Positions 1 through 60,026 of a stretch of 64,000 nucleotides of DNA are shown here, piece after piece. Numbering within the stretch: the stretch's first letter is position 1; every line of letters begins with the position of its first letter. Location: NCBI GenBank assembly GCA_964460615.1, contig CAYWPX010000009.1, positions 19,509 through 83,508 on the forward strand, in the 5' to 3' direction. The position numbers were made by a program, and so were the translations under genes. The notes beneath the pieces are model-generated. The model ran no database searches. It was given only the letters and a program-made list of their open reading frames with translations, and had not been told where the DNA came from. The stretch comes from an uncultured Planctomycetia bacterium (GTDB lineage Bacteria; Omnitrophota; Gorgyraeia; CAYWPX01).

Positions 1-772
1 CCCGCCTGATAGAGTTATGTTTTTTTGTGATACTGCTCTCCCCGATCGTCTGGGTACCATCCTTATGTTCGGCAATTAATATGACTTTCTCCAGAGTTGA
101 TGGTATAACATTGCCTCTAATGGCCAGAACCTTACTGGATTCCTTTACAGCTTTTTCAAAATCCCCCGTTACCTTTGACATTGCAGTTATGAAAAGGTTG
201 CCAAAATTATGGCCCGCCAAACCTGATCCTTCTTCAAATCTGAACTGAAAAAGTTTGCCCATCAAAGGCTCTGCGTCGGCAAGTGCCACAAGGCAGTTTC
301 TAATATCTCCGGGAGGTAGAACATCTAATTCCTGCCTCAATCTACCCGAAGACCCTCCGTCATCTGCAACAGTAACAATAGCGGTAATATTAGTAGTAAA
401 TTGTTTGAGTCCGTGAAGAAGAACAGATAGTCCGGTACCGCCCCCAATTGTTACAATCTTAGGGCCTTGTTCCAAAAATCTTTTTGAATATAAAAGATCA
501 ATAAGCGAGCCTTCTCTTTCGGCAGGTATAAAAGCCGTTGAGAAAGACTTAATAAGCCTGGTTATACCTGTTATCGCTCCGGCTATTCCGAGTATTACTA
601 TGATACTGGCCCATAATCTGTTATTAGAACGTTGTTCCAATATTAAAACTGCAACTCCCATAGAAAACATGATCATGCTGAATGCAGTAAATAATATCCA
701 ACGCTTTACCCTCATACCAGGGTAAAACCATTTTATGGCCTTAACAAGTTTTTTTGAAAAAAATGACGGCAT
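1..772 (-). CDS. YvcK/CofD-like (UPF0052, gluconeogenesis factor family) protein, 3' end truncated by window edge; N-terminal predicted TM segments
   Basis: Reverse-strand translation starting at ATG (rc of 770-772) gives MPSFFSKKL...IVTIGGGTGLSVLLHGL...VADDGGSSGRLR...PPGDIRNCLVALAD...HNFGNLFITAM, the family-typical GGGTGL and DDGGSSGRL motifs. ORF runs off the window start. Adjacent to ptsN as in conserved ptsN/rapZ/yvcK loci. Confidence 0.7.
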   Translation of the reverse strand, partial: MPSFFSKKLVKAIKWFYPGMRVKRWILFTAFSMIMFSMGVAVLILEQRSNNRLWASIIVILGIAGAITGITRLIKSFSTAFIPAEREGSLIDLLYSKRFLEQGPKIVTIGGGTGLSVLLHGLKQFTTNITAIVTVADDGGSSGRLRQELDVLPPGDIRNCLVALADAEPLMGKLFQFRFEEGSGLAGHNFGNLFITAMSKVTGDFEKAVKESSKVLAIRGNVIPSTLEKVILIAEHKDGTQTIGESSITKKHNSIRR

Positions 773-794
773 TATAAATCTCTATATATTTATC

Positions 795-1259
795 TTAACT
801 TTTCTTTTCGTCTTCTTCGGAAACAATCTTAAGAATAGCTTTCTCATCTTTCGCGTCTTTCAGCATTTCGCGAAAATATTTGTCTTTTAGGAGTCTAGCT
901 ATTCGAGCAAGTGCCTTTAAATGCGGTCCTGCCGATTCTTCAGGAGCAACTAAAAGAAAAAAGATATAAACGGGTTCACCGTCGAGAGATTCAAAATCAA
1001 TGCCTTTTTTGGAGAGTCCGAATGCAGCAACTAATTCGGATACGTTCTTTGATTTGCCGTGGGGGATCCCGATCCCCTGACCTATTCCAGTAGAACCAAG
1101 CTTTTCTCTGGAAAGAAGAATATCTACAAGCTCCTCCTTGTCTTTTATCGCACCGGCCTTGTGGAGAAGCCCCACAAGCTCTTTGATCACTCCTTCTTTG
1201 TCAGTAGCCTTGAGACTGGCACTGACAGCTTTAGAGTTTAAAAAATCCATAATTTTCAT
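795..1259 (-). CDS. ptsN: PTS IIA-like nitrogen regulatory protein PtsN (EIIA-Ntr)
   Basis: 154 aa. GIGIPHGKS phospho-His motif, overall EIIA(Fru/Ntr) fold similarity. Confidence 0.8.
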   Translation of the reverse strand: MKIMDFLNSKAVSASLKATDKEGVIKELVGLLHKAGAIKDKEELVDILLSREKLGSTGIGQGIGIPHGKSKNVSELVAAFGLSKKGIDFESLDGEPVYIFFLLVAPEESAGPHLKALARIARLLKDKYFREMLKDAKDEKAILKIVSEEDEKKS

Positions 1260-1445
1260 CTGGTGTACTCCTTATTTTAGACTATCCATTAGTAAGCAAA
1301 AAATCATTTTAATTAGTTTAATTTGCTTTCTTGAATAATTTACTGAATACATTCTTATAAGAAAATTGTTTTCTGAAATTCTTGTTTTAGAATTTCCCTC
1401 CCGAACCCAAAAACTTGATGAGGGAGTACAAATTAATTTCAAATA

Positions 1446-1521
1446 TGGAGCGGGAGGCGGGATTCGAACCCGTGACATCAACCTTGGCAAGGTTGCGCTC
1501 TACCAGCTGAGCTACTCCCGC
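1446..1521 (-). tRNA. tRNA-Gly (anticodon GCC), encoded CCA
   Basis: rc reads GCGGGAGTAGCTCAGCTGGTAGAGCGCAACCTTGCCAAGGTTGATGTCACGGGTTCGAATCCCGCCTCCCGCTCCA. Cloverleaf with anticodon loop TTGCCAA. Confidence 0.85.
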
Positions 1522-1617
1522 GAAACAATCAAATGAACAAAAAAATTAACTTATTTAAGGTCCTTCAGTTGCTCCAGTTTGTCGCAACTTCAGGATCAAA
1601 TCTTGCTTCGCAAGATT

Positions 1618-1702
1618 TGGTGGGCAAGGAGAGAGTTGAACTCTCAAGGGTTACCCCATACGGTCCTAAGCCGTACGCGTATGCCAGTTCCGCCACTTGC
1701 CC
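1618..1702 (-). tRNA. tRNA-Leu (anticodon TAG), long variable arm, encoded CCA
   Basis: rc reads GGGCAAGTGGCGGAACTGGCATACGCGTACGGCTTAGGACCGTATGGGGTAACCCTTGAGAGTTCAACTCTCTCCTTGCCCACCA. Anticodon stem TACGG/CCGTA, loop CTTAGGA. Confidence 0.8.
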
Positions 1703-1763
1703 GATACAGAATTAGATAAAACTACCTTGATTTAATCGGGTAATTACCCTTATTCTCCTACCC

Positions 1764-2012
1764 TATCAAAAAATTTGGTACCCCCAACAGGGGTCGTCTA
1801 CTACGTTTCGCTGATTGCTCAACTGCGTAGACTCACCTCATTTGCTTACGCTCCGTGACTCGGAGCTTATCCTCGCCTGCCGTAAGGCGGCTCGGCGCAA
1901 ATTCGCTTCTGAAATTCTTTTTTTGAATTTCATCCCGAGATTGTTTGATATAAAACAATCGAGGGGGTATTCCTATCAGAATTATCAAATTTGGTACCCC
2001 CAACAGGGGTCG
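1764..2012. repeat. ~30-bp direct repeats (1764-1796 and 1983-2012) = duplicated 3' terminus of tRNA-Lys(CTT), flanking a ~190-bp non-coding insert
   Basis: tatcaaa(aa)atttggtacccccaacaggggtcg occurs twice. The second copy is the genuine tRNA 3' end (T-loop to CCA); the first is followed by unrelated hairpin-rich sequence. Confidence 0.8.
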
Positions 2013-2067
2013 AACCTGTGACACCCTGATTAAGAGTCAGGTGCTCTACCAACTGAGCTATGGGGGC
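1992..2067 (-). tRNA. tRNA-Lys (anticodon CTT), encoded CCA
   Basis: rc reads GCCCCCATAGCTCAGTTGGTAGAGCACCTGACTCTTAATCAGGGTGTCACAGGTTCGACCCCTGTTGGGGGTACCA. Anticodon loop CTCTTAA. Confidence 0.8.
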
Positions 2068-2354
2068 AACTACAAATCAAAAATTCAATTTAAAACATCA
2101 AAAACAGTATAAACTCATTAACCATAGCCCACTTACAATGAATCTTATGGCACAATAAGTATTATGAGCAAATTCCCTTAATAAATTGAAGCTAAATTAT
2201 AACAAAATATTAGATAAGAGTCAACTATGGTTTTAGAAATAATTTTTTGAGCAATTTCTAAATATAATTATAAAGAACAGGCGCTTCTAAGCATTTTTTA
2301 GCCTAATTTATGCCATTATAACTCAGATTCCCGGGTCTAAAGATTAAAAAAGAA

Positions 2355-2536
2355 CATCTTTATTAAATTCTGGCGCGCCCGGCAGCTTGTCCGCCAATGA
2401 ATTGTGGCGGAGAGTCGACATTCTTTACTAATTTCCTTTGAAACATCTAATTCTGGCGCGCCCGGCAGCTTGTCCGCCAATGAATTGTGGCGGAGAGTCG
2501 ACATTCTTTACTAATTTCCTTTGAAACATCTAATTC
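2355..2536. repeat. Tandem 83-bp repeat (2.2 copies); each unit begins with the 3'-terminal 18 nt of tRNA-Arg plus a hairpin (ccgccaatgaattgtggcgg). The last unit runs into the real tRNA.
   Basis: ttctggcgcgcccggcagcttgtccgccaatgaattgtggcggagagtcgacattctttactaatttcctttgaaacatctaa is present at 2368-2450 and 2451-2533, then ttctggcgcgcccggcag continues as tRNA-Arg. Confidence 0.85.
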
Positions 2537-2613
2537 TGGCGCGCCCGGCAGGAGTCGAACCTGCGACCAAGTGGTTCGAAGCCACCTACTCTATCCAGCT
2601 GAGCTACGGGCGC
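2537..2613 (-). tRNA. tRNA-Arg (anticodon TCG), encoded CCA
   Basis: rc reads GCGCCCGTAGCTCAGCTGGATAGAGTAGGTGGCTTCGAACCACTTGGTCGCAGGTTCGACTCCTGCCGGGCGCGCCA. Anticodon loop CTTCGAA. Confidence 0.75.
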
Positions 2614-2663
2614 AAAAATTACACACAAATTAATTTTACTACTCAATTGGATAGTTATACTTT

Positions 2664-2795
2664 AGTAGGTGGCTTAGAGCCACCTACTCCCTGCCTGCCG
2701 GCCCTCTGAAATCTAAAAGATTTCGAGGCCTTTAGTCCCGGAAATGCGTAGCATTTCACGGGGCAGGCAGGTATCCAGCTGAGCTACGGGCGCAA
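2664..2795 (-). pseudogene. tRNA-Arg-derived fragment (5' acceptor/D-arm and anticodon stem-loop, no T-arm) interrupted by an 82-bp palindrome-ended element
   Basis: rc reads GCGCCCGTAGCTCAGCTGGATA + [CCTGCCTGCC...GGCAGGCAGG] + GAGTAGGTGGCTCTAAGCCACCTACT. The first 22 nt are identical to the tRNA-Arg 5' end and no 3' half follows. Confidence 0.6.
2690..2771. mobile_element. MITE-like element: 12-bp terminal inverted repeats CCTGCCTGCCGG / (G)GGGCAGGCAGG enclosing ~58 bp with two internal hairpins; inserted in the pseudo-tRNA
   Basis: Termini match the dispersed 20-bp palindrome found at 47217, 47237, 52923 and 60007. Interior hairpins tgaaatct/agatttca and gaaatgc/gcatttc. Confidence 0.5.
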
Positions 2796-2844
2796 AAACA
2801 TTAAAATTCTATGGTGTTACTTAAAAAGATCCCTGATCCCAAGG

Positions 2845-3954
2845 TTATTGCTGCATTTTTTGCAACTGATTAATTATCTCATCCATAACGGCAAACCCGA
2901 TTGCATATTTGACCTTTGGCCCTATATTGATCGAGGGTTTTTCAACAGGTCCTTTTATTACAAAATCAAAAATTACCTCTCCTCTTCCTGACATAAGGTA
3001 TGGCTTTAGTTTATCCACTGCCACCTGTAAAAAGGTTGTTCCTTCCATCCCTTCTTTGATATCCAGTTCAAGTTTATTAAAGGTCATTGTTGTCAGAGAA
3101 TCTATATTGCCGCTATGCATGGCTATCTTTGTATCGGACCCAAACCTGGCCTCATGCACTAAAAAAGGGATCTTATTCTCAAAATAGGGTAAAAATTTCA
3201 TCAGATCAATATTGCCGGTAGTGATCGTACACTCGGTATCCACTCTATCGTTATGAATAGCCGCATTACCATTTACCAGAACATCACCATCTTCCGGTTC
3301 TTCAATAATATTAAAATTCAAAGAATATACCGTTTGGATAATATCATCGCTACCCAGGGTATTGGAAATTTCTGATGCAACATTTTTGCATATCAATAAA
3401 TCGGTCCCTTTGGCCAGATAATTATCTCTAAAATTTACAATTGAGTCTTTTATAGTGATTTTCTTTATACTTTTTAATGAATTATAAATTGAAGACGCTG
3501 AAGAGAAACCGGACTCCCCGGCATAAGCCAACCTAGACGGGTCTAAATTCAGAAGTTTCATCTTAGATTTATTTTGAACAAAATTAGCAATATTAAACCG
3601 GCCTTTATAATTCCGCTCGACATTCAATACGGCCTTTTGTATCAGAATTTCTTTAATAAAAAGCTTCTTTTCTTTTTCAAATTTTTCTTTATCAAAAGCA
3701 ATTGAACACAATTCTGCATTCAAAAGAGTCTTGTTTTCAAAATCCATCGTATCTGGTATGGTAAAACCCTTAAAATCCACCGTCCCTTTATCGAGGCTAA
3801 ATGAAATACTTTCAAATTTGAGAGGCCTACCCAAAATTTCACTTAATTTATCCTCAATAAGAACCTTTCCATAAAATTTCATATACAAAGCTATAGCCAA
3901 AACAATAGCTATGGCCAAAGCCAAAACTATGATGAAAATTTTTGAGTATTTCAT
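2845..3954 (-). CDS. AsmA-like outer-membrane assembly/biogenesis protein (N-terminal TM anchor)
   Basis: 369 aa. N-terminal hydrophobic anchor, and a C-terminal region (..GPVEKPSINIGPKV..) resembling AsmA-family C-termini. Length is shorter than canonical AsmA. Confidence 0.4.
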   Translation of the reverse strand: MKYSKIFIIVLALAIAIVLAIALYMKFYGKVLIEDKLSEILGRPLKFESISFSLDKGTVDFKGFTIPDTMDFENKTLLNAELCSIAFDKEKFEKEKKLFIKEILIQKAVLNVERNYKGRFNIANFVQNKSKMKLLNLDPSRLAYAGESGFSSASSIYNSLKSIKKITIKDSIVNFRDNYLAKGTDLLICKNVASEISNTLGSDDIIQTVYSLNFNIIEEPEDGDVLVNGNAAIHNDRVDTECTITTGNIDLMKFLPYFENKIPFLVHEARFGSDTKIAMHSGNIDSLTTMTFNKLELDIKEGMEGTTFLQVAVDKLKPYLMSGRGEVIFDFVIKGPVEKPSINIGPKVKYAIGFAVMDEIINQLQKMQQ

Positions 3955-3955
3955 G

Positions 3956-4123
3956 TTAGTTTTTATCGGTGTGGCTAGAAGTGCCGAACGAATAGTGCAT
4001 TAAGGTGTGTTCGATCATCCCCACTTTGTAATAAAGGTCTGACATTATAACACAGCTTCCAACAATATAGACCGCTAAGGCCGCTATAAGGAACTTAATA
4101 AAAATTGGGTTCGTTTTTTTCAT
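3956..4123 (-). CDS. small hydrophobic protein (55 aa), possible membrane peptide upstream of the asmA-like gene
   Basis: MKKTNPIFIKFLIAALAVYIVGSCVIMSDLYYKVGMIEHTLMHYSFGTSSHTDKN. GGAGA RBS 8 nt upstream. Stop is 2 nt before the asmA-like start. Not in the ORF track (<60 aa). Confidence 0.3.
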   Translation of the reverse strand: MKKTNPIFIKFLIAALAVYIVGSCVIMSDLYYKVGMIEHTLMHYSFGTSSHTDKN

Positions 4124-8964: not shown

Positions 8965-9219
8965 TTAGGCTAATTGTGGACTAAAAAACTTTTCTTTAAT
9001 TCTCCGTCGCCCTGTAGTTGATTTGTAAAATTTTTCCTTCTGTCTAGCTTCCTTAAGCGTTTCGAACTCTTCTGTATGTATTATGTTATACGGTCGATAT
9101 GGGCGTGACGCTTTGACTCTCCCGGCATTATGCAACGCTAATCGCTTATTCACATCATCGGCAACGCCGGTATACGTTCTCGTTTTCCTTTCATTGAGCA
9201 AGATATAGACATAATGCAT
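8965..9219 (-). CDS. GIY-YIG nuclease superfamily protein (UPF0213/YhbQ-like)
   Basis: 84 aa from MHYVYILLNERKTRTYTGVADDVNKRLALHNAG...EEFETLKEA, matching the YhbQ/YazA family. The longer ORF-track version (to 9345) overlaps tRNA-Ser and is rejected. Confidence 0.75.
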   Translation of the reverse strand: MHYVYILLNERKTRTYTGVADDVNKRLALHNAGRVKASRPYRPYNIIHTEEFETLKEARQKEKFYKSTTGRRRIKEKFFSPQLA

Positions 9220-9300
9220 ATCTGTTTCTGTATGGCGGATCCGCCTCGCCAGCTTCGCTGGCAGGCGAGATTTCGCCATCTCGCCAACTTTGTTGGCGGA

Positions 9301-9390
9301 TGGCGGAGAGGGAGAGATTCGAACTCTCGGTACCTTGCGGTACACGCGCTCTCCAAGCGCGCGCCATAAACCGGACTAGGCGACCTCTCC
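9301..9390 (-). tRNA. tRNA-Ser (anticodon GGA), long variable arm, encoded CCA
   Basis: rc reads GGAGAGGTCGCCTAGTCCGGTTTATGGCGCGCGCTTGGAGAGCGCGTGTACCGCAAGGTACCGAGAGTTCGAATCTCTCCCTCTCCGCCA. Anticodon stem CGCGC/GCGCG, loop TTGGAGA. Confidence 0.75.
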
Positions 9391-9858
9391 TAGAAAATTG
9401 TGAAGCAATTTTCACTCTGAATTTTGACGAGAAAAATATCGAAGAAATTTTTCCGTCGTTATAAATTCAGAGTAATTCATAAAATTTCGTTGCATCTCGC
9501 CAAATTTTTGCTCTGGCGCAAAAATAATTAAATTTCATTCGTTATGGCGGCGCCGCTTGCTCCCTGCTCGGCTTGTTAAACTCAAAAGTCTTTTATCAAA
9601 TGAAATCCCGCGTTAGCGGGGTCTCCTCGCCACGGTCGCCAGCGGCATCTCGCCAAATTTTTGCTCTGGCGCAAAAATTTGGCGGAAGGTGAAGGATTCG
9701 AACCCTCGAAGGGATTACTCCCTTAACGGTTTTCAAGACCGCCGCATTCAACCGCTCTGCCAACCTTCCTAGAAATTGTGAAACAATTTCACTCTGAATT
9801 TTGACAAGAAAAATATCGAAGAGATTTTTCTGTCGGTTTAAATTCAGAGTTACCTTAT
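9391..9858. repeat. Tandemly duplicated tRNA-Ser unit: ~90-bp upstream segment with 11-bp inverted repeats (actctgaattt...aaattcagagt) + tRNA + downstream 13-bp-stem palindrome gccaaatttttgc-tctggc-gcaaaaatttggc
   Basis: 9391-9480 ~ 9770-9858 (~85% identity). gcatctcgccaaatttttgctctggcgcaaaaat occurs at 9493-9527 and 9648-9682. A degenerate version lies at 9270-9300. Confidence 0.8.
9680..9769 (-). tRNA. tRNA-Ser (anticodon TGA), encoded CCA
   Basis: rc reads GGAAGGTTGGCAGAGCGGTTGAATGCGGCGGTCTTGAAAACCGTTAAGGGAGTAATCCCTTCGAGGGTTCGAATCCTTCACCTTCCGCCA. Closely resembles canonical bacterial tRNA-Ser(UGA). Confidence 0.85.
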
Positions 9859-12162: not shown

Positions 12163-13626
12163 TCAACCCTTTATAACTCCTATTGGTCGCATCTTGCAGA
12201 CTCTTTTTGCGAGACCCGCCTCATGGACTACATTAACAACATCATTTACATCTTTATATGCTTCAGGCGCTTCTTCTAGTAATGTTTCTCTGCCTGTAGA
12301 TTTGACTATTATACCTTTATTTTCCAATTCGCGCGAGAGATTTCTTCCTTTTAGACTTCTGATCGCAGCACCCCTCGAAAGCATCCGTCCGGCACCATGA
12401 CAAGTAGAACCAAAGGTTTCATCTTCAGCCTTTTTTGTTCCGACTAATAAATACGAATTTCTACCCATATCTCCCGGTATTATAACCGGTTGGCCTATGG
12501 TTTTGTATTTAAGGGGAATATCAGGATGATTTGGCCCAAAGGACCTCGTCGCACCTTTTCTATGAACACATAATAATTTTTCTTTACCATTTATATTATA
12601 TTTTTCTAATTTAGCAATATTATGAGCAACATCATAAATAAGGTCCATACCAAGATCTCTGGAAGATTTTTTGAAAACTTTTTCAAATACATTTCGCGCT
12701 ATATGCATAAGGCACTGCCTATTGGCCCAGGCATAATTAGCTGCGCATCTCATAGCTCCCAGATATTTCTTTCCTTCCGGTGAATTCACCGGAACTGAGG
12801 CAAGCTGCCTATCGGGAACTTGAATATTGTACTTAGATAGTAAATGGATCATATCTTTAGCATATTCATCGCATATCTGATACCCCAACCCCCTTGAGCC
12901 TGAGTGGATCATTAGAACAACACTTCCGACTTCAATACCAAACACCTTGGCTGCAATTTTATCGAAAATTTCATCAACTACCTGCACTTCCATAAAATGG
13001 TTTCCCGAACCAAGAGTCCCTGACTGGTTCTTTCCTCTTTCGTAGGCTCTATCTGAAACTGCGGACGGATCCGCCCCTTCAATAAATCCGCCCGATTCGG
13101 TATATTCTATATCTTCTTTCCTTCCATAGCCTTTTTTCTCTATAACCCACCTTGAACCCTTTAAAAGAAGCTCCCTTTCTTCGAGCGCAGAGATCCTTAC
13201 ATCTCCTTTAGATCCAACGCCTGCAGGTACGTCGTTAAAAAGCGCATACACCAGATCCTTTAGAACCGGCCTGATATCATCTTCAAACAAATTTGTCCTA
13301 ACTAACCTTACCCCACAATTTATATCATAGCCCACTCCGCCGGGCGAAACTACTCCGCCGTTTTCTATATCTGTTGCAGCGACGCCTCCTATAGGAAAAC
13401 CATACCCCCAATGAATATCAGGCATAGCCAAAGAAGCGTTTACTATTCCGGGCAAAGTGGCTACATTTGCAACCTGCTCCATAGCCTTATCTTTAAAGAT
13501 ATCCTTGAGCATTCCTTCACTTGAATAGATAATACCCGGTACCCGCATGCCTTCTTTATAAGATTTTGGTATACGCCATCTGTAGTCGTCAATCTTTTCT
13601 ATGGGTATGTTTATTGTATCTGGCAT
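12163..13626 (-). CDS. rtcB: RNA-splicing ligase RtcB (3'-phosphate/5'-OH RNA ligase)
   Basis: 487 aa. GGVGYDINCGVR, HSGSRGLG, HNIA and CVHRKGATR motifs. Confidence 0.95.
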   Translation of the reverse strand: MPDTINIPIEKIDDYRWRIPKSYKEGMRVPGIIYSSEGMLKDIFKDKAMEQVANVATLPGIVNASLAMPDIHWGYGFPIGGVAATDIENGGVVSPGGVGYDINCGVRLVRTNLFEDDIRPVLKDLVYALFNDVPAGVGSKGDVRISALEERELLLKGSRWVIEKKGYGRKEDIEYTESGGFIEGADPSAVSDRAYERGKNQSGTLGSGNHFMEVQVVDEIFDKIAAKVFGIEVGSVVLMIHSGSRGLGYQICDEYAKDMIHLLSKYNIQVPDRQLASVPVNSPEGKKYLGAMRCAANYAWANRQCLMHIARNVFEKVFKKSSRDLGMDLIYDVAHNIAKLEKYNINGKEKLLCVHRKGATRSFGPNHPDIPLKYKTIGQPVIIPGDMGRNSYLLVGTKKAEDETFGSTCHGAGRMLSRGAAIRSLKGRNLSRELENKGIIVKSTGRETLLEEAPEAYKDVNDVVNVVHEAGLAKRVCKMRPIGVIKG

Positions 13627-13727
13627 TTTTAAATTCCTTTAGCTATAAGGCAATTAGATAATTGAGTGATTGGTTTAATTTTTTACCTAATCGCATTATA
13701 ACCTAATCACTATTTTTTATATACGAG

Positions 13728-14144
13728 CTACACATCAAAAATAATCTCTGCGCTATACATATCACCGGCCTTTGTTATCTTAAAATCGTGATATGTCACG
13801 CCCTTGACTTCGGCTTTAAGCACATGCCTTCTCTTATCAAAATCGTCACCAACAATTTCGGCAACGATCTCGCAATCAGCCAGTTTTTTTATTTTAATTT
13901 TTTTAATAAGAAATTCTCTGGAGGTATAAAAATAAAGGAGCTCGCTTAAAAAATTTATAAGCAGCTCCTCCAAGTTCGGGGCCTTGATAGAAACTTCTTT
14001 TTTCAAGGCCCCTTTAATTTTTTTTGTATCACTAAGAACATCAAATAAAGCTAAAGCCGAATTAGTAAAAAGCGTTTTAAGGGTTTTCCCATGCGCTCTT
14101 ACGCCTATGTCTGCAGTATGATCAAAATACTCAAAGCGCTTCAT
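13728..14144 (-). CDS. archease (RtcB activator)
   Basis: 138 aa. Signature FEYFDHTADIGVRAHG at the N-terminus; located immediately upstream of rtcB. Confidence 0.85.
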   Translation of the reverse strand: MKRFEYFDHTADIGVRAHGKTLKTLFTNSALALFDVLSDTKKIKGALKKEVSIKAPNLEELLINFLSELLYFYTSREFLIKKIKIKKLADCEIVAEIVGDDFDKRRHVLKAEVKGVTYHDFKITKAGDMYSAEIIFDV

Positions 14145-23411: not shown

Positions 23412-23965
23412 AAAATTAAGAAATTTTAGCAACAATCGCATGGACAAAAAATAAACCTCTTATTTTTTTAAGAGGTTTTAATTGAATTTTGCCCCTCGTT
23501 TTGCCTAAATTGCTTCTTCTCGACGCAATTTACGGCAACTCGGGATTGGTGAGCCGCCCGTGACTCTCCCGACGCAATCCTTTGGATAGGTCGGGATTCC
23601 GACTTACCTGTTTTATGGGTAACGTCGGAAGAACACGGCGTATCTACCAATGAATAAAATTGAAAGACTGAGAGGGTATATGTCCATGCGCTTAAAATAG
23701 TACTAAAATTCCTTAATTTTCAAGAACACAAAATTAAGAAATTTTAGTATTAATCGCATGGACAAAAAATAAACCTCTTATTTTTTTAAGAGGTTTTAAT
23801 TGAATTTTGCCCCTCGTTTTGCCTAAATTGCTTCTTCTCGACGCAATTTACGGCAACTCGGGATTGGTGAGCCGCCCGTGACTCTCCCGACGCAATCCTT
23901 TGGATAGGTCGGGATTCCGACTTACCTGTTTTATGGGTAACGTCGGAAGAACACGGTGTATTTGG
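23412..23965. repeat. Two ~232-bp direct repeats (23412-23643 and 23731-23960, period ~319 bp). Each contains a bidirectional terminator hairpin and the 3'-terminal 20 nt of tRNA-Lys(TTT).
   Basis: Near-identical blocks. tggtgagccgcccgtgactc at 23548-23566 and 23865-23884 equals the tRNA 3' end at 24143-24162. ORFs 23468-23650 and 23786-24001 lie inside the repeats and are likely spurious. Confidence 0.85.
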
Positions 23966-24103
23966 TATTAACGGTATCGGGATTGGGGGGCTATTACGCA
24001 CATGCTCTTAAAGAGAAATGCCGATATTCTTAAGATATTGTAAAAATTCCTTAATTTTAATTACAAAATTAAGGAATTTTTACAATAAGAATATGGACCA
24101 AAA

Positions 24104-24142
24104 TAAAAAATCATTCTTAATTTTAAGAATGATTTTTTATTT
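24104..24142. terminator. bidirectional rho-independent terminator abutting the tRNA-Lys(TTT) 3' end
   Basis: aaaaaatcattcttaa-tttt-aagaatgatttttt: perfect 11-bp stem flanked by A- and T-tracts. Confidence 0.7.
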
Positions 24143-24218
24143 TGGTGAGCCGCCCGTGACTCGAACACGGCACAACCACATTAAAAGTGTGGTGCTCTAC
24201 CTGATGAGCTAGCGGCCC
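24143..24218 (-). tRNA. tRNA-Lys (anticodon TTT), encoded CCA
   Basis: rc reads GGGCCGCTAGCTCATCAGGTAGAGCACCACACTTTTAATGTGGTTGTGCCGTGTTCGAGTCACGGGCGGCTCACCA. Anticodon loop CTTTTAA. Confidence 0.85.
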
Positions 24219-24566
24219 ACGTTAAACTTAAATCTAAATTTCAATACTAGGCAATCTGACTGATGTCGCTTTGTTGATGTCCCAAAAAACTTAAGTTTTT
24301 TGGGATGAATTAGCTCTTGATCCTTAAAAACTCGTTTTTCTGCCTGCTGCCTTAGGGCAGTCAGGCAGTAATCATGATCTAATTCTACGGCCCACGTTAA
24401 ACTTAAATCTAAATTTCAATACTAGGCAATCTGACTGATGTCGCTTTGTTGATGTCCCAAAAAACTTAAGTTTTTTGGGATGAATTAGCTCTTGATCCTT
24501 AAAAACTCGTTTTTCTGCCTGCTGCCTTAGGGCAGTCAGGCAGTAATCATGATCTAATTCTACGGC
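24216..24566. repeat. Tandem 175-bp repeat x2 (+ partial third) between frr and tRNA-Lys(TTT). Each unit carries a perfect 24-bp palindrome cccaaaaaacttaagttttttggg and an imperfect GC hairpin ctgcctgctgcc-ttag-ggcagtcaggcag.
   Basis: Units 24216-24390 and 24391-24565 are near-identical; the unit boundary includes the first nt of the tRNA 5' end (cggccc). Confidence 0.85.
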
Positions 24567-24588
24567 CCCCTTTAATTCAAAATCTAAA

Positions 24589-46976: not shown

Positions 46977-47216
46977 CTTTATAGCAACTGTTATGTATGT
47001 TTTTAATGCAAATTCTATGAGTTAAAAATTATATAAAGTAGGAATAATTTCATCAATATATTCTTTATAATTGTTTTTTTCATTTTTCCTTATAACAATA
47101 TAACAATTAAAATTTATAAGAACTGTACCTATTTTTGCTTATTCTATTGTTCTATTGCTCAATTTTCAATTGCTCTACCAAAATTTGCCAAAAACAAATT
47201 CTGGTTGCCCGGTAAG

Positions 47217-47256
47217 CCTGCCTGCCGGCAGGCAGGCCTGCCTGCCGGCAGGCAGG
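47217..47256. repeat. two tandem copies of the perfect 20-bp palindrome CCTGCCTGCCGGCAGGCAGG, inserted inside a duplicated copy of the tRNA-Gln 3' end
   Basis: tggttgcccggtaag|PAL|PAL|gattcgg versus the genuine tRNA 3' end tggttgcccggtaaggattcg at 47392-47412. Confidence 0.9.
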
Positions 47257-47391
47257 GATTCGGCGCCCTTCGTACGGCTTCGCTTACGCTACGCCAGTTA
47301 CTACGGGTCGGCCACCCGCCTCATCTACATATTCTCCTTTTCGTCGAATATATGAGGCTCCCTTCGAATCCTTACTTGTAGTTAATAATTT

Positions 47392-47465
47392 TGGTTGCCC
47401 GGTAAGGATTCGAACCTTAACGCTCAGACCCAAATTCTGATGTGCTACCATTACACTACCGGGCA
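47392..47465 (-). tRNA. tRNA-Gln (anticodon TTG), encoded CCA
   Basis: rc reads TGCCCGGTAGTGTAATGGTAGCACATCAGAATTTGGGTCTGAGCGTTAAGGTTCGAATCCTTACCGGGCAACCA. Anticodon stem TCAGA/TCTGA, loop ATTTGGG. Confidence 0.75.
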
Positions 47466-52922: not shown

Positions 52923-52942
52923 CCTGCCTGCCGGCAGGCAGG
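52923..52942. repeat. 20-bp perfect palindrome CCTGCCTGCCGGCAGGCAGG flanked by TATGAGC direct repeats; adjacent hairpin ggctcatag-ttac-ctatgagcc
   Basis: Identical to the copies at 47217, 47237 and 60007. Confidence 0.9.
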
Positions 52943-60006: not shown

Positions 60007-60026
60007 CCTGCCTGCCGGCAGGCAGG
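60007..60026. repeat. 20-bp perfect palindrome CCTGCCTGCCGGCAGGCAGG flanked by TATGAGC direct repeats (glyA-rpiB intergenic)
   Basis: gctatgagc|PAL|tatgagctat. Confidence 0.9.

Follow-up and report, generated by a model that had tools for sequence, protein, structure and literature searches.

What fills the 190 bp that separate a tRNA-Lys(CTT) gene from a second copy of its own 3′ end in the DNA of an uncultured Omnitrophota bacterium? The locus belongs to a stretch of 64,000 nt (assembly GCA_964460615.1, contig CAYWPX010000009.1, positions 19,509 to 83,508), hereafter called the window, whose own numbering is used throughout. Direct repeats running from the T-loop to the CCA end are the attL/attR signature of tRNA-integrating tyrosine-recombinase elements, and an initial annotation of the window proposed either the scar of such an element or a small non-autonomous one. 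The reading that we lean towards is that the insert and the second 3′-end copy represent an eroded member of a family of small, folded elements, devoid of open reading frames (ORFs), that insert 3′ of Omnitrophota tRNA genes.

The 3′ end of tRNA-Lys(CTT) is repeated behind a structured insert

The features of the locus are as follows.

2196..2224, 5′ of tRNA-Lys: promoter-like TTGACT-17-TATAAT, 11/12, with TG (promoter/terminator scan; consensus match only), minus strand
1992..2067, minus strand: intact tRNA-Lys(CTT) gene, CCA encoded (ARAGORN; Rfam tRNA, 70.7 bits)
1987..2012, minus strand: proximal repeat copy, in-gene tRNA nt 56-76 plus 5 nt of 3′ flank (repeat family D3, 100% identity)
1911..1986, minus strand: AU-rich long spacer from the tRNA to the element core, 76 nt (sequence, fold)
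1771..1796, minus strand: distal repeat copy, second tRNA nt 56-76 plus 5 flank nt, which is the 3′ tail of the element (repeat family D3; k-mer scan)

The tRNA-Lys(CTT) gene, with CCA in the gene, was called by ARAGORN and Rfam alike. A repeat search of the window confirmed the duplication reported initially, as an exact 26-nt direct repeat (1771-1796 = 1987-2012) with a spacing of 216 bp; its chance expectation within ~200 positions is roughly 200 x 4^-26, or ~4e-14, by arithmetic estimate. On the tRNA strand, the repeat reads CGACCCCTGTTGGGGGTACCA followed by AATTT. Hence it covers tRNA nt 56-76, from T-loop C56 to CCA, in agreement with the T-loop-to-CCA extent first claimed, plus 5 nt of 3′ flank. 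The longer span first given for the distal copy (1764-1796) is explained by similarity that continues through ..GATA, given a 3-nt indel. The placement of the copies had to be corrected in one respect: the tRNA and both copies lie on the minus strand, and the second copy is downstream (3′) of the gene.

The 190 bp between the repeat copies (1797-1986) are strongly structured, as had been noticed. For the 221-nt stretch, the folding energy is -76.2 kcal/mol (z = -5.3 versus 200 shuffles), and the hairpin quoted in the initial annotation belongs to this fold. The absence of an ORF also held in substance: only two mechanical ORFs occur in the insert, 1815-2021 (plus strand, 68 aa) and 1833-2024 (minus strand, 63 aa), each of which extends into the tRNA, and we do not regard them as genes. 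The spacer 1911-1986 is unusually long for the family described below. It contains two local hairpins (1960-1939 and 1931-1911) and a UACCCCC stretch (1969-1963) that complements the acceptor 3′ strand of the tail. In the promoter/terminator scan of the window, no terminator-like site was found between tRNA-Lys, -Leu and -Gly. Because a promoter-like site precedes tRNA-Lys and no terminator-like site lies within the unit, the element is probably transcribed as part of a Lys-Leu-Gly tRNA unit.

Occupied and empty sites in related tRNA clusters

Relatives were gathered by scanning public contigs with the tRNA-Lys 3′ end, which gave 2 metagenome and 51 genome loci (numbered here with an L). About 19 of the retrieved loci are of Omnitrophota type and carry the same cluster, tRNA-Arg(TCG)-Lys(CTT)-Leu(TAG)-Gly(GCC)-ptsN. 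Of the 65 tRNAs in 19 Omnitrophota loci, 21 have their 3′ end repeated no more than 450 nt downstream, versus 1 of 45 in the other-phylum loci obtained with the same query (Fisher p = 5e-5). In the window itself, a k-mer scan of all eight tRNAs showed that four of them carry a downstream copy of their own 3′ end. This systematic nature of the phenomenon, in the window and across the phylum, had been overlooked in the initial annotation.

Comparison of the locus in relatives, one of the checks first proposed, revealed both empty and occupied sites. The spacer between Lys and Leu amounts to 1 nt in two loci (L032 and L049) and to 15 nt in L033, against 121-996 nt elsewhere (996 in L038); that between Leu and Gly spans 9 to 713 nt across related loci. 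Empty sites therefore exist, since the spacers of the tRNA cluster vary so widely, that between Lys and Leu going down to 1 nt. A stable structural feature, which the initial annotation had considered as the opposite case, would be conserved and devoid of empty-site alleles; empty sites do occur in related species. In L027 and L034, different subtypes are arranged in a tandem array behind a single tRNA. Synteny through the neighbouring DUF748 gene was also considered and dropped: no record matches its protein exactly, its homologues are at most 53% identical and their contigs lack the tRNA cluster. The named ones among these homologues indicate a Candidatus Omnitrophota bacterium as the source of the window.

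Architecture and covariation of the element family

Intact family copies are ORF-less, measure ~100-190 nt and share one architecture across species at tRNA-Gly, -Lys, -Leu, -Arg and -Gln. They start with an AU-rich spacer of 9-30 nt, followed by an 8-10 nt segment named IR-L, which is reverse-complementary to the opening 8-10 nt of the tRNA copy (tRNA nt 56-63/65). Then come a joining strand AANRGAG, the stem P2/P2a with its loop CGAC(R)AAUAGGAG, a second joining strand CG..U, and the stem P3, GGC(C)G(A)CYY...RRGCGCC, which has two invariant bulged bases (C and A) and a tip of 3 to ~60 nt. Straight after P3, tRNA nt 56-76 begin, and their first 8-10 nt pair with IR-L to form the closing helix P1. 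The copies at tRNA-Leu (GGAGTTG vs CAACTCC) show that IR-L is this complement and not a repeat of the 5′ half of the T-arm. The most conserved nucleotides border the junction with the tRNA-derived sequence. RNAalifold applied to ten copies yields a three-way junction, and a single copy folds to the same junction.

A covariance model built from ten copies of the A type (R1) gave 26 matches at E < 1e-3 in 461 kb, all of them in Omnitrophota-type loci and all on the tRNA strand. It found nothing in 32 other-phylum loci, nor in a further 87 kb of Omnitrophota DNA with a single tRNA, and no match in the window outside the tRNA-Gln copy at E < 1e-3. Of the 26 copies tabulated, 24 follow a tRNA or an earlier element at a distance of 7-165 nt, and almost all of them terminate with the 3′ end of the tRNA in question. 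Two exceptions are L022:197-322 (region 1-322), which ends in a tRNA-Arg 3′ end with no tRNA in the 196 nt upstream and is the sole copy without an adjacent intact tRNA, and L040, whose tail comes from a different tRNA. In nearly all of the 26 copies, the tail equals the resident tRNA with 0-1 mismatch, and the identity always starts at C56. A split tRNA or a T-loop intron was rejected as an interpretation, an intact tRNA lying just upstream in every copy examined except L022:197-322.

In a 40-row alignment of R1 matches, which was fitted to the R1 model and so favours the structure, 96.6% of the cells are paired, whereas shuffles reach 78.5% and slid partners 35-46%. Of the 28 pairs, 24 change on both sides. 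The tRNA-derived parts vary with their hosts. Comparison of the L019 copy with its orthologues in L028 and L034 shows a T-loop substitution in the tRNA that is mirrored in both the tail and IR-L. In L038, IR-L fits a C60 allele while resident tRNA and tail carry U60, giving a G.U pair, and the IR-L of L033 fits a G59 allele, giving a C.A mismatch. From the sequences, we conclude that IR-L is element-borne and the tail target-borne. L040 (106-515) is a chimera that contains, in order, a tRNA-Arg, the start of an Arg-type element, a tRNA-Lys, and an element with a Lys-type IR-L and a tRNA-Arg tail, which suggests recombination between elements that reshuffles tRNA genes. In addition, the Lys copy of L038 and the Leu copy of L053 have an identical 54-nt segment from P2 to the junction, with different P1 helices and tails. 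Copies behind Gly, Lys and Leu have one and the same ~50-nt module in their P3 tips, and nested modules are also seen in the P2a loop.

The Lys(CTT) insert as a family member

A second model, R2, was built from 11 copies of the B type and one of the C type (L033), 12 in total, all from other genomes and including zero window sequence. It aligns with the window as follows.

1776..1910, minus strand: element core and tail, 'C-type' member (R2, 31.7 bits, E = 3.7e-7)
1902-1897 with 1845-1840, minus strand: stem P2 (AUUUGC/GCAAAU; R2 alignment)
1896-1866, minus strand: GCCGAG..CGAGGAUAAG module (R2 alignment)
1865-1851, minus strand: hairpin CUCCG/CGGAG (R2 alignment)
1840-1834, minus strand: joining strand UGAGGUG (R2 alignment)
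1832-1827 with 1801-1796, minus strand: stem P3 (GUCUAC/GUAGAC; R2 alignment)

For this match, the E-value amounts to 3.7e-7 over the whole window and to 2.2e-8 when 4 kb are scanned with filters off. Because R2 finds it without having been trained on any window sequence, the Lys(CTT) insert is assigned to the family, as subtype 'C'. Its core begins 81 nt past tRNA-Lys(CTT), on the same minus strand as the tRNA, and the tail is identical to nt 56-76 of the upstream tRNA at 21 of 21 positions, with the 5 flank nt in addition. By eye, the insert resembles the element behind tRNA-Gly in L033, with which it has in common GCGCCGAG, CGAGGA(A/U)AAG, CG..AGC, UGAGGUG and a P3 ending at C56. The hairpin stem covaries between the two (GCCGC/GCGGC in L033 vs CUCCG/CGGAG in the window). 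The joining strand CG..UGGCCGAY that precedes P3 in the family is not present in the window copy, which has UGAGGUG(A)GUCUAC instead, and this C-type variant is common only to the window copy and L033 (..UGAGGUGGGCCUGCG). When the 190-bp insert was compared by BLAST with all fetched loci, only the tRNA part was matched.

The R2 alignment of the window copy retains P2, the inner module, the hairpin and P3, and has a deletion at the position of IR-L. Within 1797-1991, there was no match to ACAGGGGTCG at ≤2 mismatches, nor to its 7-8-mers at ≤1 mismatch; the 5′ strand of the closing helix P1 is thus missing. Since IR-L is lost and P1 cannot form, we read the Lys(CTT) copy as an eroded and immobile relic.

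A putative mobile element weighed against other explanations

If the family consists of small non-autonomous elements, insertion would be site-specific, at or beside T-loop position 55|56 of the tRNA gene, and its outcome, a doubled tRNA 3′ end next to an undamaged gene, would be that of Campbell-type (att-like) integration. The covariation of the stems suggests that a folded single strand, either RNA or single-stranded DNA, matters for the element. The most likely role of helix P1 would be to imitate the target duplex, or to serve as its guide, for a machinery whose genes lie elsewhere. Processing of the tRNA would probably remove the element, with a likely cut in the AU-rich spacer. As regards the two possibilities offered in the initial annotation, the R2 match and the existence of empty as well as occupied sites favour the small non-autonomous element, whereas the scar of a large integrase-bearing element is unsupported.

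A number of observations speak against this reading. R1, the model of the commonest subtype, misses the Lys(CTT) insert (no match at E ≤ 10), and membership depends on R2 and on one close relative, L033. The elements have no linked recombinase, transposase, reverse transcriptase or other gene for mobilisation (the window has none), and a version of the element with an ORF was not encountered. Neither within-species polymorphism nor an excised or circular form was seen in the comparison sequences, which are all metagenome assemblies. For IR-L to match each host tRNA, a guide carried by the element would need retargeting to five tRNA species, and concerted evolution of long-resident functional modules could look alike. 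Moreover, the tRNA-sense strand is only mildly favoured by the pairing data (13 G.U vs 6 A.C). Finally, conserved joining strands and covarying stems typify functional RNA, so that selection on the RNA has to be taken seriously as a rival.

The latter point leads to a different view, possible but distinctly less probable in our judgement, in which these sequences are functional RNA modules of tRNA operons and are not mobile. They would be cis-acting processing or regulatory RNAs, or self-cleaving or self-ligating ribozymes acting at the ..GCGCC|C56 phosphodiester; the tRNA 3′ fragment would be released or presented, and the tail copy and IR-L would be kept through selection on the fold. Such a role would fit the near-invariant joining strands and P2a loop among covarying stems, as well as the fact that the most conserved segment (UGGCCGAC / GCGCC, with the two invariant bulged bases) abuts the tRNA-derived sequence. 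The helices, on inspection, are laid out like a three-way-junction ribozyme (7-nt joining strand, P2, ~5-nt joining strand, P3, no joining strand, P1), with the predicted cleavage site at the start of tRNA identity. The mirrored T-loop substitution in L019 versus L028 and L034, the orientation, always that of the tRNA, and the probable co-transcription are equally in line with it; theta ribozymes offer a precedent for ribozymes 3′ of tRNAs (PMC10879173), and the window encodes an RtcB-archease pair at 12163-14144, a ligase system for 2′,3′-cyclic-phosphate and 5′-OH RNA ends, which is circumstantial. However, the element is dispensable, many species lacking it at a given tRNA and some clusters having none, and copies are often disrupted, nested, truncated or chimeric. 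The identity to the tRNA extends over the whole 21-nt tail, unpaired acceptor strand included, which a duplication at the DNA level explains more easily. In addition, no Rfam ribozyme or RNA family matches even at E ≤ 1-5, the joining strands are not those of the hammerhead and the topology is not HDV (hepatitis delta virus)-like, as judged by inspection.

Two further explanations dispense with a dedicated small element or RNA. The duplication could be a local by-product, through tandem duplication or slippage over the tRNA 3′ end or through error-prone repair of homing-endonuclease breaks, and the window offers material for this idea: a true tandem repeat of two identical 83-nt units at tRNA-Arg, 318-nt downstream and 175-nt upstream tandem units at tRNA-Lys(TTT), and a ..AAATTT(TTT)GATA flank common to both Lys(CTT) copies. 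Duplications of 5′ ends also occur (window 2772-2798 and L038 857-880), and LAGLIDADG and GIY-YIG ORFs are found in tRNA clusters. Yet R2 (E = 3.7e-7) shows the Lys(CTT) insert to be homologous to elements that follow other tRNAs in different genomes, the sequences past the two Lys(CTT) copies are unrelated beyond ~10 nt, and in 26 copies the duplication has C56 as its constant left boundary. The cross-genome homology of the insert rules out a purely local duplication at the Lys(CTT) locus, and we consider the explanation as a whole improbable. As for the remnant of a large integrase-encoding element in tRNA-Lys, such as a prophage, an integrative and conjugative element or a genomic island that lost nearly all its DNA, the exact repeat with the classic attL/attR extent is what it would leave behind. 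There is, on the other hand, no integrase or phage gene in the 64 kb, and no viral contig carries the tRNA-Lys 3′ end or the element core; phage records gave no match and plasmid records one marginal match (32 nt, E = 0.9). The same compact covarying architecture is present at many tRNAs in many species, and independent deletion remnants are disfavoured because this ~100-190 nt architecture recurs at five tRNA species. We regard such a scar as improbable, too.

A bolder reading can also be put forward, which we hold only as a tentative proposal. The family may stand for a new class of ORF-less, nucleic-acid-guided elements in which an 8-10 nt guide pairs with the T-loop and the 3′ strand of the T-stem and the three-way-junction core acts at 55|56. 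The core might work as a small ribozyme cleaving or joining RNA (yielding core and tRNA 3′ fragment as a conjugate, perhaps together with RtcB) or as a folded single-stranded recombination site; with analogues in L046 and L056, this would be a general and overlooked mode of tRNA-gene colonisation.

Two inserts from other phyla were recorded separately. L046:172-282, behind tRNA-Glu in a Clostridiales metagenome-assembled genome (MAG), has an unrelated core sequence and an analogous design, with a four-way junction and a closing helix of 10-11 bp between CUUAUCGGG and the tRNA-Glu 3′-end copy (z = -3.7). A similar insert is found at L056:7840-7948, behind tRNA-Arg(CCT) of a Bdellovibrionales MAG, where an upstream complement pairs with the tRNA 3′-end copy.

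What is novel in this family is that the att-like T-loop-to-CCA signature belongs to ~100-nt covarying elements with a complement to their own target, at five tRNA species of a poorly known phylum. Mobile elements of this kind would point to a new mechanism, in which the target is perhaps chosen by a guide; RNA modules would represent a new structured RNA, possibly catalytic, in tRNA operons. In practical terms, such copies may pass for att sites of genomic islands, and they inflate tRNA-cluster spacers in MAGs.

Other tRNA genes and gene content of the window

Two further features of the window are related to the family.

47202..47391, minus strand: second family copy, canonical 'A type', downstream of tRNA-Gln(TTG) 47392-47465 (R1, R2)
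1561..1595, minus strand: stand-alone hairpin with loop GACAAACUGGAG, equivalent to the family P2a module, without tRNA copy, in the spacer between tRNA-Leu and tRNA-Gly (weak: R1 partial, E = 0.18; R2 1568-1590, E = 0.013 in 4 kb)

Downstream of tRNA-Gln(TTG), a copy of the last 15 nt of the tRNA is found at a distance of 175 nt. R1 matches 47242-47372 with 95.7 bits, a score to be read knowing that the R1 seed included the Gln copy; R2, which is independent of it, scores 33.7 bits (E = 9.8e-8). The tail CGAAUC|CUUACCGGGCAACCA is interrupted by two copies of a 20-nt palindrome, CCTGCCTGCCGGCAGGCAGG (47217-47256). This palindrome also occurs at 52923-52942 and 60007-60026, in intergenic positions flanked by ..CTATGAGC / GTATGAGC.., and behaves like a repetitive extragenic palindromic (REP)-type repeat of the source genome. 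Both family copies of the window look inactive, since the Lys copy cannot form P1 and the Gln tail is split by the palindromes.

The stand-alone hairpin is part of a recurrent arrangement (window 1522-1617, L038:1580-1660, L028 and L043) that has the family P2a hairpin without a tRNA copy. Its order is a terminator-like hairpin straight after CCA, then GAUCCUGA..[hairpin, GAC(R)AA..GGAG loop]..GAAGGACC.

The two other duplicated tRNA 3′ ends of the window lie in tandem units. tRNA-Arg(TCG), at 2537-2613, is followed by two tandem units of 83 nt that are 100% identical (2366-2531, minus strand). Each starts with the last 15 nt of the tRNA and GAATT, and contains TCGACTC, a piece of the T-loop, and then a 26-nt hairpin inserted ahead of CTGCCGGGCGCGCCA. 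The first 22 nt of the same tRNA, with 5 flank nt, are duplicated upstream at 2772-2798 (region 2664-2798). Past this copy, on the tRNA strand, an 86-nt insert lies between CCTGCCTGCC and GGCAGGCAGG, followed by an anticodon-arm-like GGUGG-CUCUAAG-CCACC; read as a tRNA, this arm of 2664-2798 would have the anticodon CUA, and the whole resembles a displaced, interrupted 5′ tRNA half. Downstream of tRNA-Lys(TTT) (24143-24218), two tandem units of ~318 nt (23547-24142) each end in the last 20 nt of the tRNA; the order at their ends is CCGTGTTC, a 63-nt insert of two hairpins and GAGTCACGGGCGGCTCACCA, a T-arm split within its loop. Upstream, ~2.1 tandem units of 175 nt (24213-24570) include the first 6 nt of the tRNA. 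Neither R1 nor R2 matches the tandem units at tRNA-Arg or those at tRNA-Lys(TTT).

The window is otherwise a piece of housekeeping chromosome, with rpsB-tsf-pyrH-frr, lpx genes, clpX, dnaB, serS and RtcB-archease. Among its ~60 ORFs of at least 110 aa, Pfam detected no integrase, transposase, reverse transcriptase or phage gene. Strand bias is extreme, 8 of 8 tRNAs and nearly all ORFs being on the minus strand. The RtcB RNA ligase and archease genes (12163-14144, minus strand) adjoin serS, with a pair of tRNA-Ser genes on one side and the rest of the region on the other; the serS-RtcB-archease order is also found in L180 and L181, and a connection to the tRNA-end elements is speculative. An 85-aa ORF with a GIY-YIG nuclease domain (8965-9222, minus strand; Pfam E = 7e-15) lies ~80 nt downstream of tRNA-Ser(GGA) (9301-9390), where no tRNA-end duplication was detected. 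The genes for tRNA-Ser GGA and UGA have near-identical upstream flanks (9391-9460 vs 9770-9840; 9490-9530 vs 9637-9678) with a repeated hairpin ..AATTTTTGCTCTGGCGCAAAAAT.., that is, a flank duplication around different isoacceptors.

Inserts of other types in Omnitrophota tRNA clusters

Cluster spacers of the related loci also contain LAGLIDADG-type ORFs (PF14528) and an unassigned 169-aa ORF (L038:857-1494, L047:1604-2122, L048:6380-6889 and L053:780-1289; LAGLIDADG in L038 and L047). The ORF of L038 is preceded by the 5′ fragment of a different tRNA-Leu allele (857-880), as though a homing event had replaced the gene. At L007:1035-1213, and also in L008 and L030, the Lys-to-Leu spacer holds a 170-nt, hairpin-rich insert resembling a miniature inverted-repeat transposable element (MITE), without tRNA-end copy; in L007, it has a 9-nt direct repeat, AAATTTCGC, on its flanks and imperfect terminal inverted repeats. 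Because LAGLIDADG ORFs, a GIY-YIG ORF and a MITE-like insert occur there too, Omnitrophota tRNA clusters are, as far as their sequences tell, general landing pads for selfish DNA.

Comparison with known systems

The scan for known non-coding RNA families proposed with the initial annotation ended in tRNAs and chance-level matches only (cmscan against Rfam 15; window 1-4000 at E ≤ 5 and seven loci with intact copies at E ≤ 1). A match to YrlA was discarded, scoring 23-25 bits against a gathering score of 69 and overlapping tRNA T-arms. In viral contigs, a loose motif gave at least 120 chance matches, none of them confirmed by R1 among the 80 loci that it scanned, and there were no matches with the strict core motif or with the tRNA-Lys tail. 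Text searches of the literature found no description of a tRNA-tail-copying arrangement. Hence the family is apparently undescribed so far, both in Rfam 15 and in the literature reached by text search. Inspection led us to reject membership of the hammerheads, which have the same three-way topology with other core and joining-strand sequences, and of the HDV-like ribozymes, whose helix order is incompatible. A retrovirus-like primer-binding site as the meaning of the complement was also dropped: there is no reverse transcriptase, and local duplication explains the copy.

Among small structured RNAs, theta ribozymes are minimal HDV-like ribozymes adjacent to phage tRNAs, with a proposed role in tRNA 3′-end maturation (Kienbeck et al. 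2024, PMC10879173). The family similarly consists of small structured RNAs encoded right beside tRNA genes. However, it has no Rfam HDV-like match, its helix order misfits the HDV double pseudoknot by inspection, it includes a duplicate of the tRNA 3′ end, and it is chromosomal in Omnitrophota rather than phage-borne; catalysis is hypothetical.

Free-standing homing endonuclease genes, for example segB of phage T4, also use tRNA clusters as landing pads of selfish DNA. The family, in contrast, encodes no endonuclease, and a link between the two is hypothetical. MITEs and structured repeats such as Correia, ERIC, RUP, REP and the Rickettsia palindromic elements are likewise small, ORF-less, strongly folding and intergenic, and often nested, decayed and co-transcribed with their neighbours. 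Unlike theirs, the inverted repeat of the family is specific to the host tRNA instead of constant, the duplication measures 21-33 nt rather than 2-10 nt, and copies occur only 3′ of tRNA genes in a single orientation. No terminal inverted repeats were found in the window copy by the repeat search.

The guides of mobile introns (internal guide sequence and P1-P10 in group I, exon- and intron-binding sites, EBS-IBS, in group II) and of IS200/IS605 also involve an internal segment that pairs with flanking target at the insertion junction. Nevertheless, the family is too small for an intron core, has no Rfam intron match and no encoded protein, leaves the tRNA uninterrupted and has a pairing of 8-10 bp with the 3′ flank. 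A folded strand whose helix imitates a double-stranded target is known from integron attC sites and the attP(+) hairpin of CTX phage, a single-stranded DNA stage being our supposition in the present case. Conserved extrahelical bases (C and A in P3 of the A and B types), a terminal structure of variable length, oriented insertion and arrays of units with one junction sequence add to what is a resemblance only. In contrast to these sites, the consensus has no RYYYAAC...GTTRRRY core by inspection and there is no linked IntI or Xer (window Pfam); a three-way junction takes the place of one long hairpin, and the target is the T-loop of a tRNA.

The closest formal parallel to the arrangement at tRNA-Lys(CTT) is that of tRNA-targeting integrative elements and of CIMEs, cis-mobilisable elements bounded by att sites, tRNA 3′ ends being the classic landing sites of integrative elements. 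As in these, a direct repeat of the tRNA 3′ end brackets the insert, the gene is kept intact, tandem accretion occurs and relatives have empty sites. To our knowledge, known occupants of tRNA 3′ ends are of kilobase scale and bear an integrase, whereas the elements of the family have ~100-190 nt, no ORF and no integrase nearby. They differ above all in what they carry: a core that forms a covarying three-way junction and an internal complement to the start of the att-like copy.

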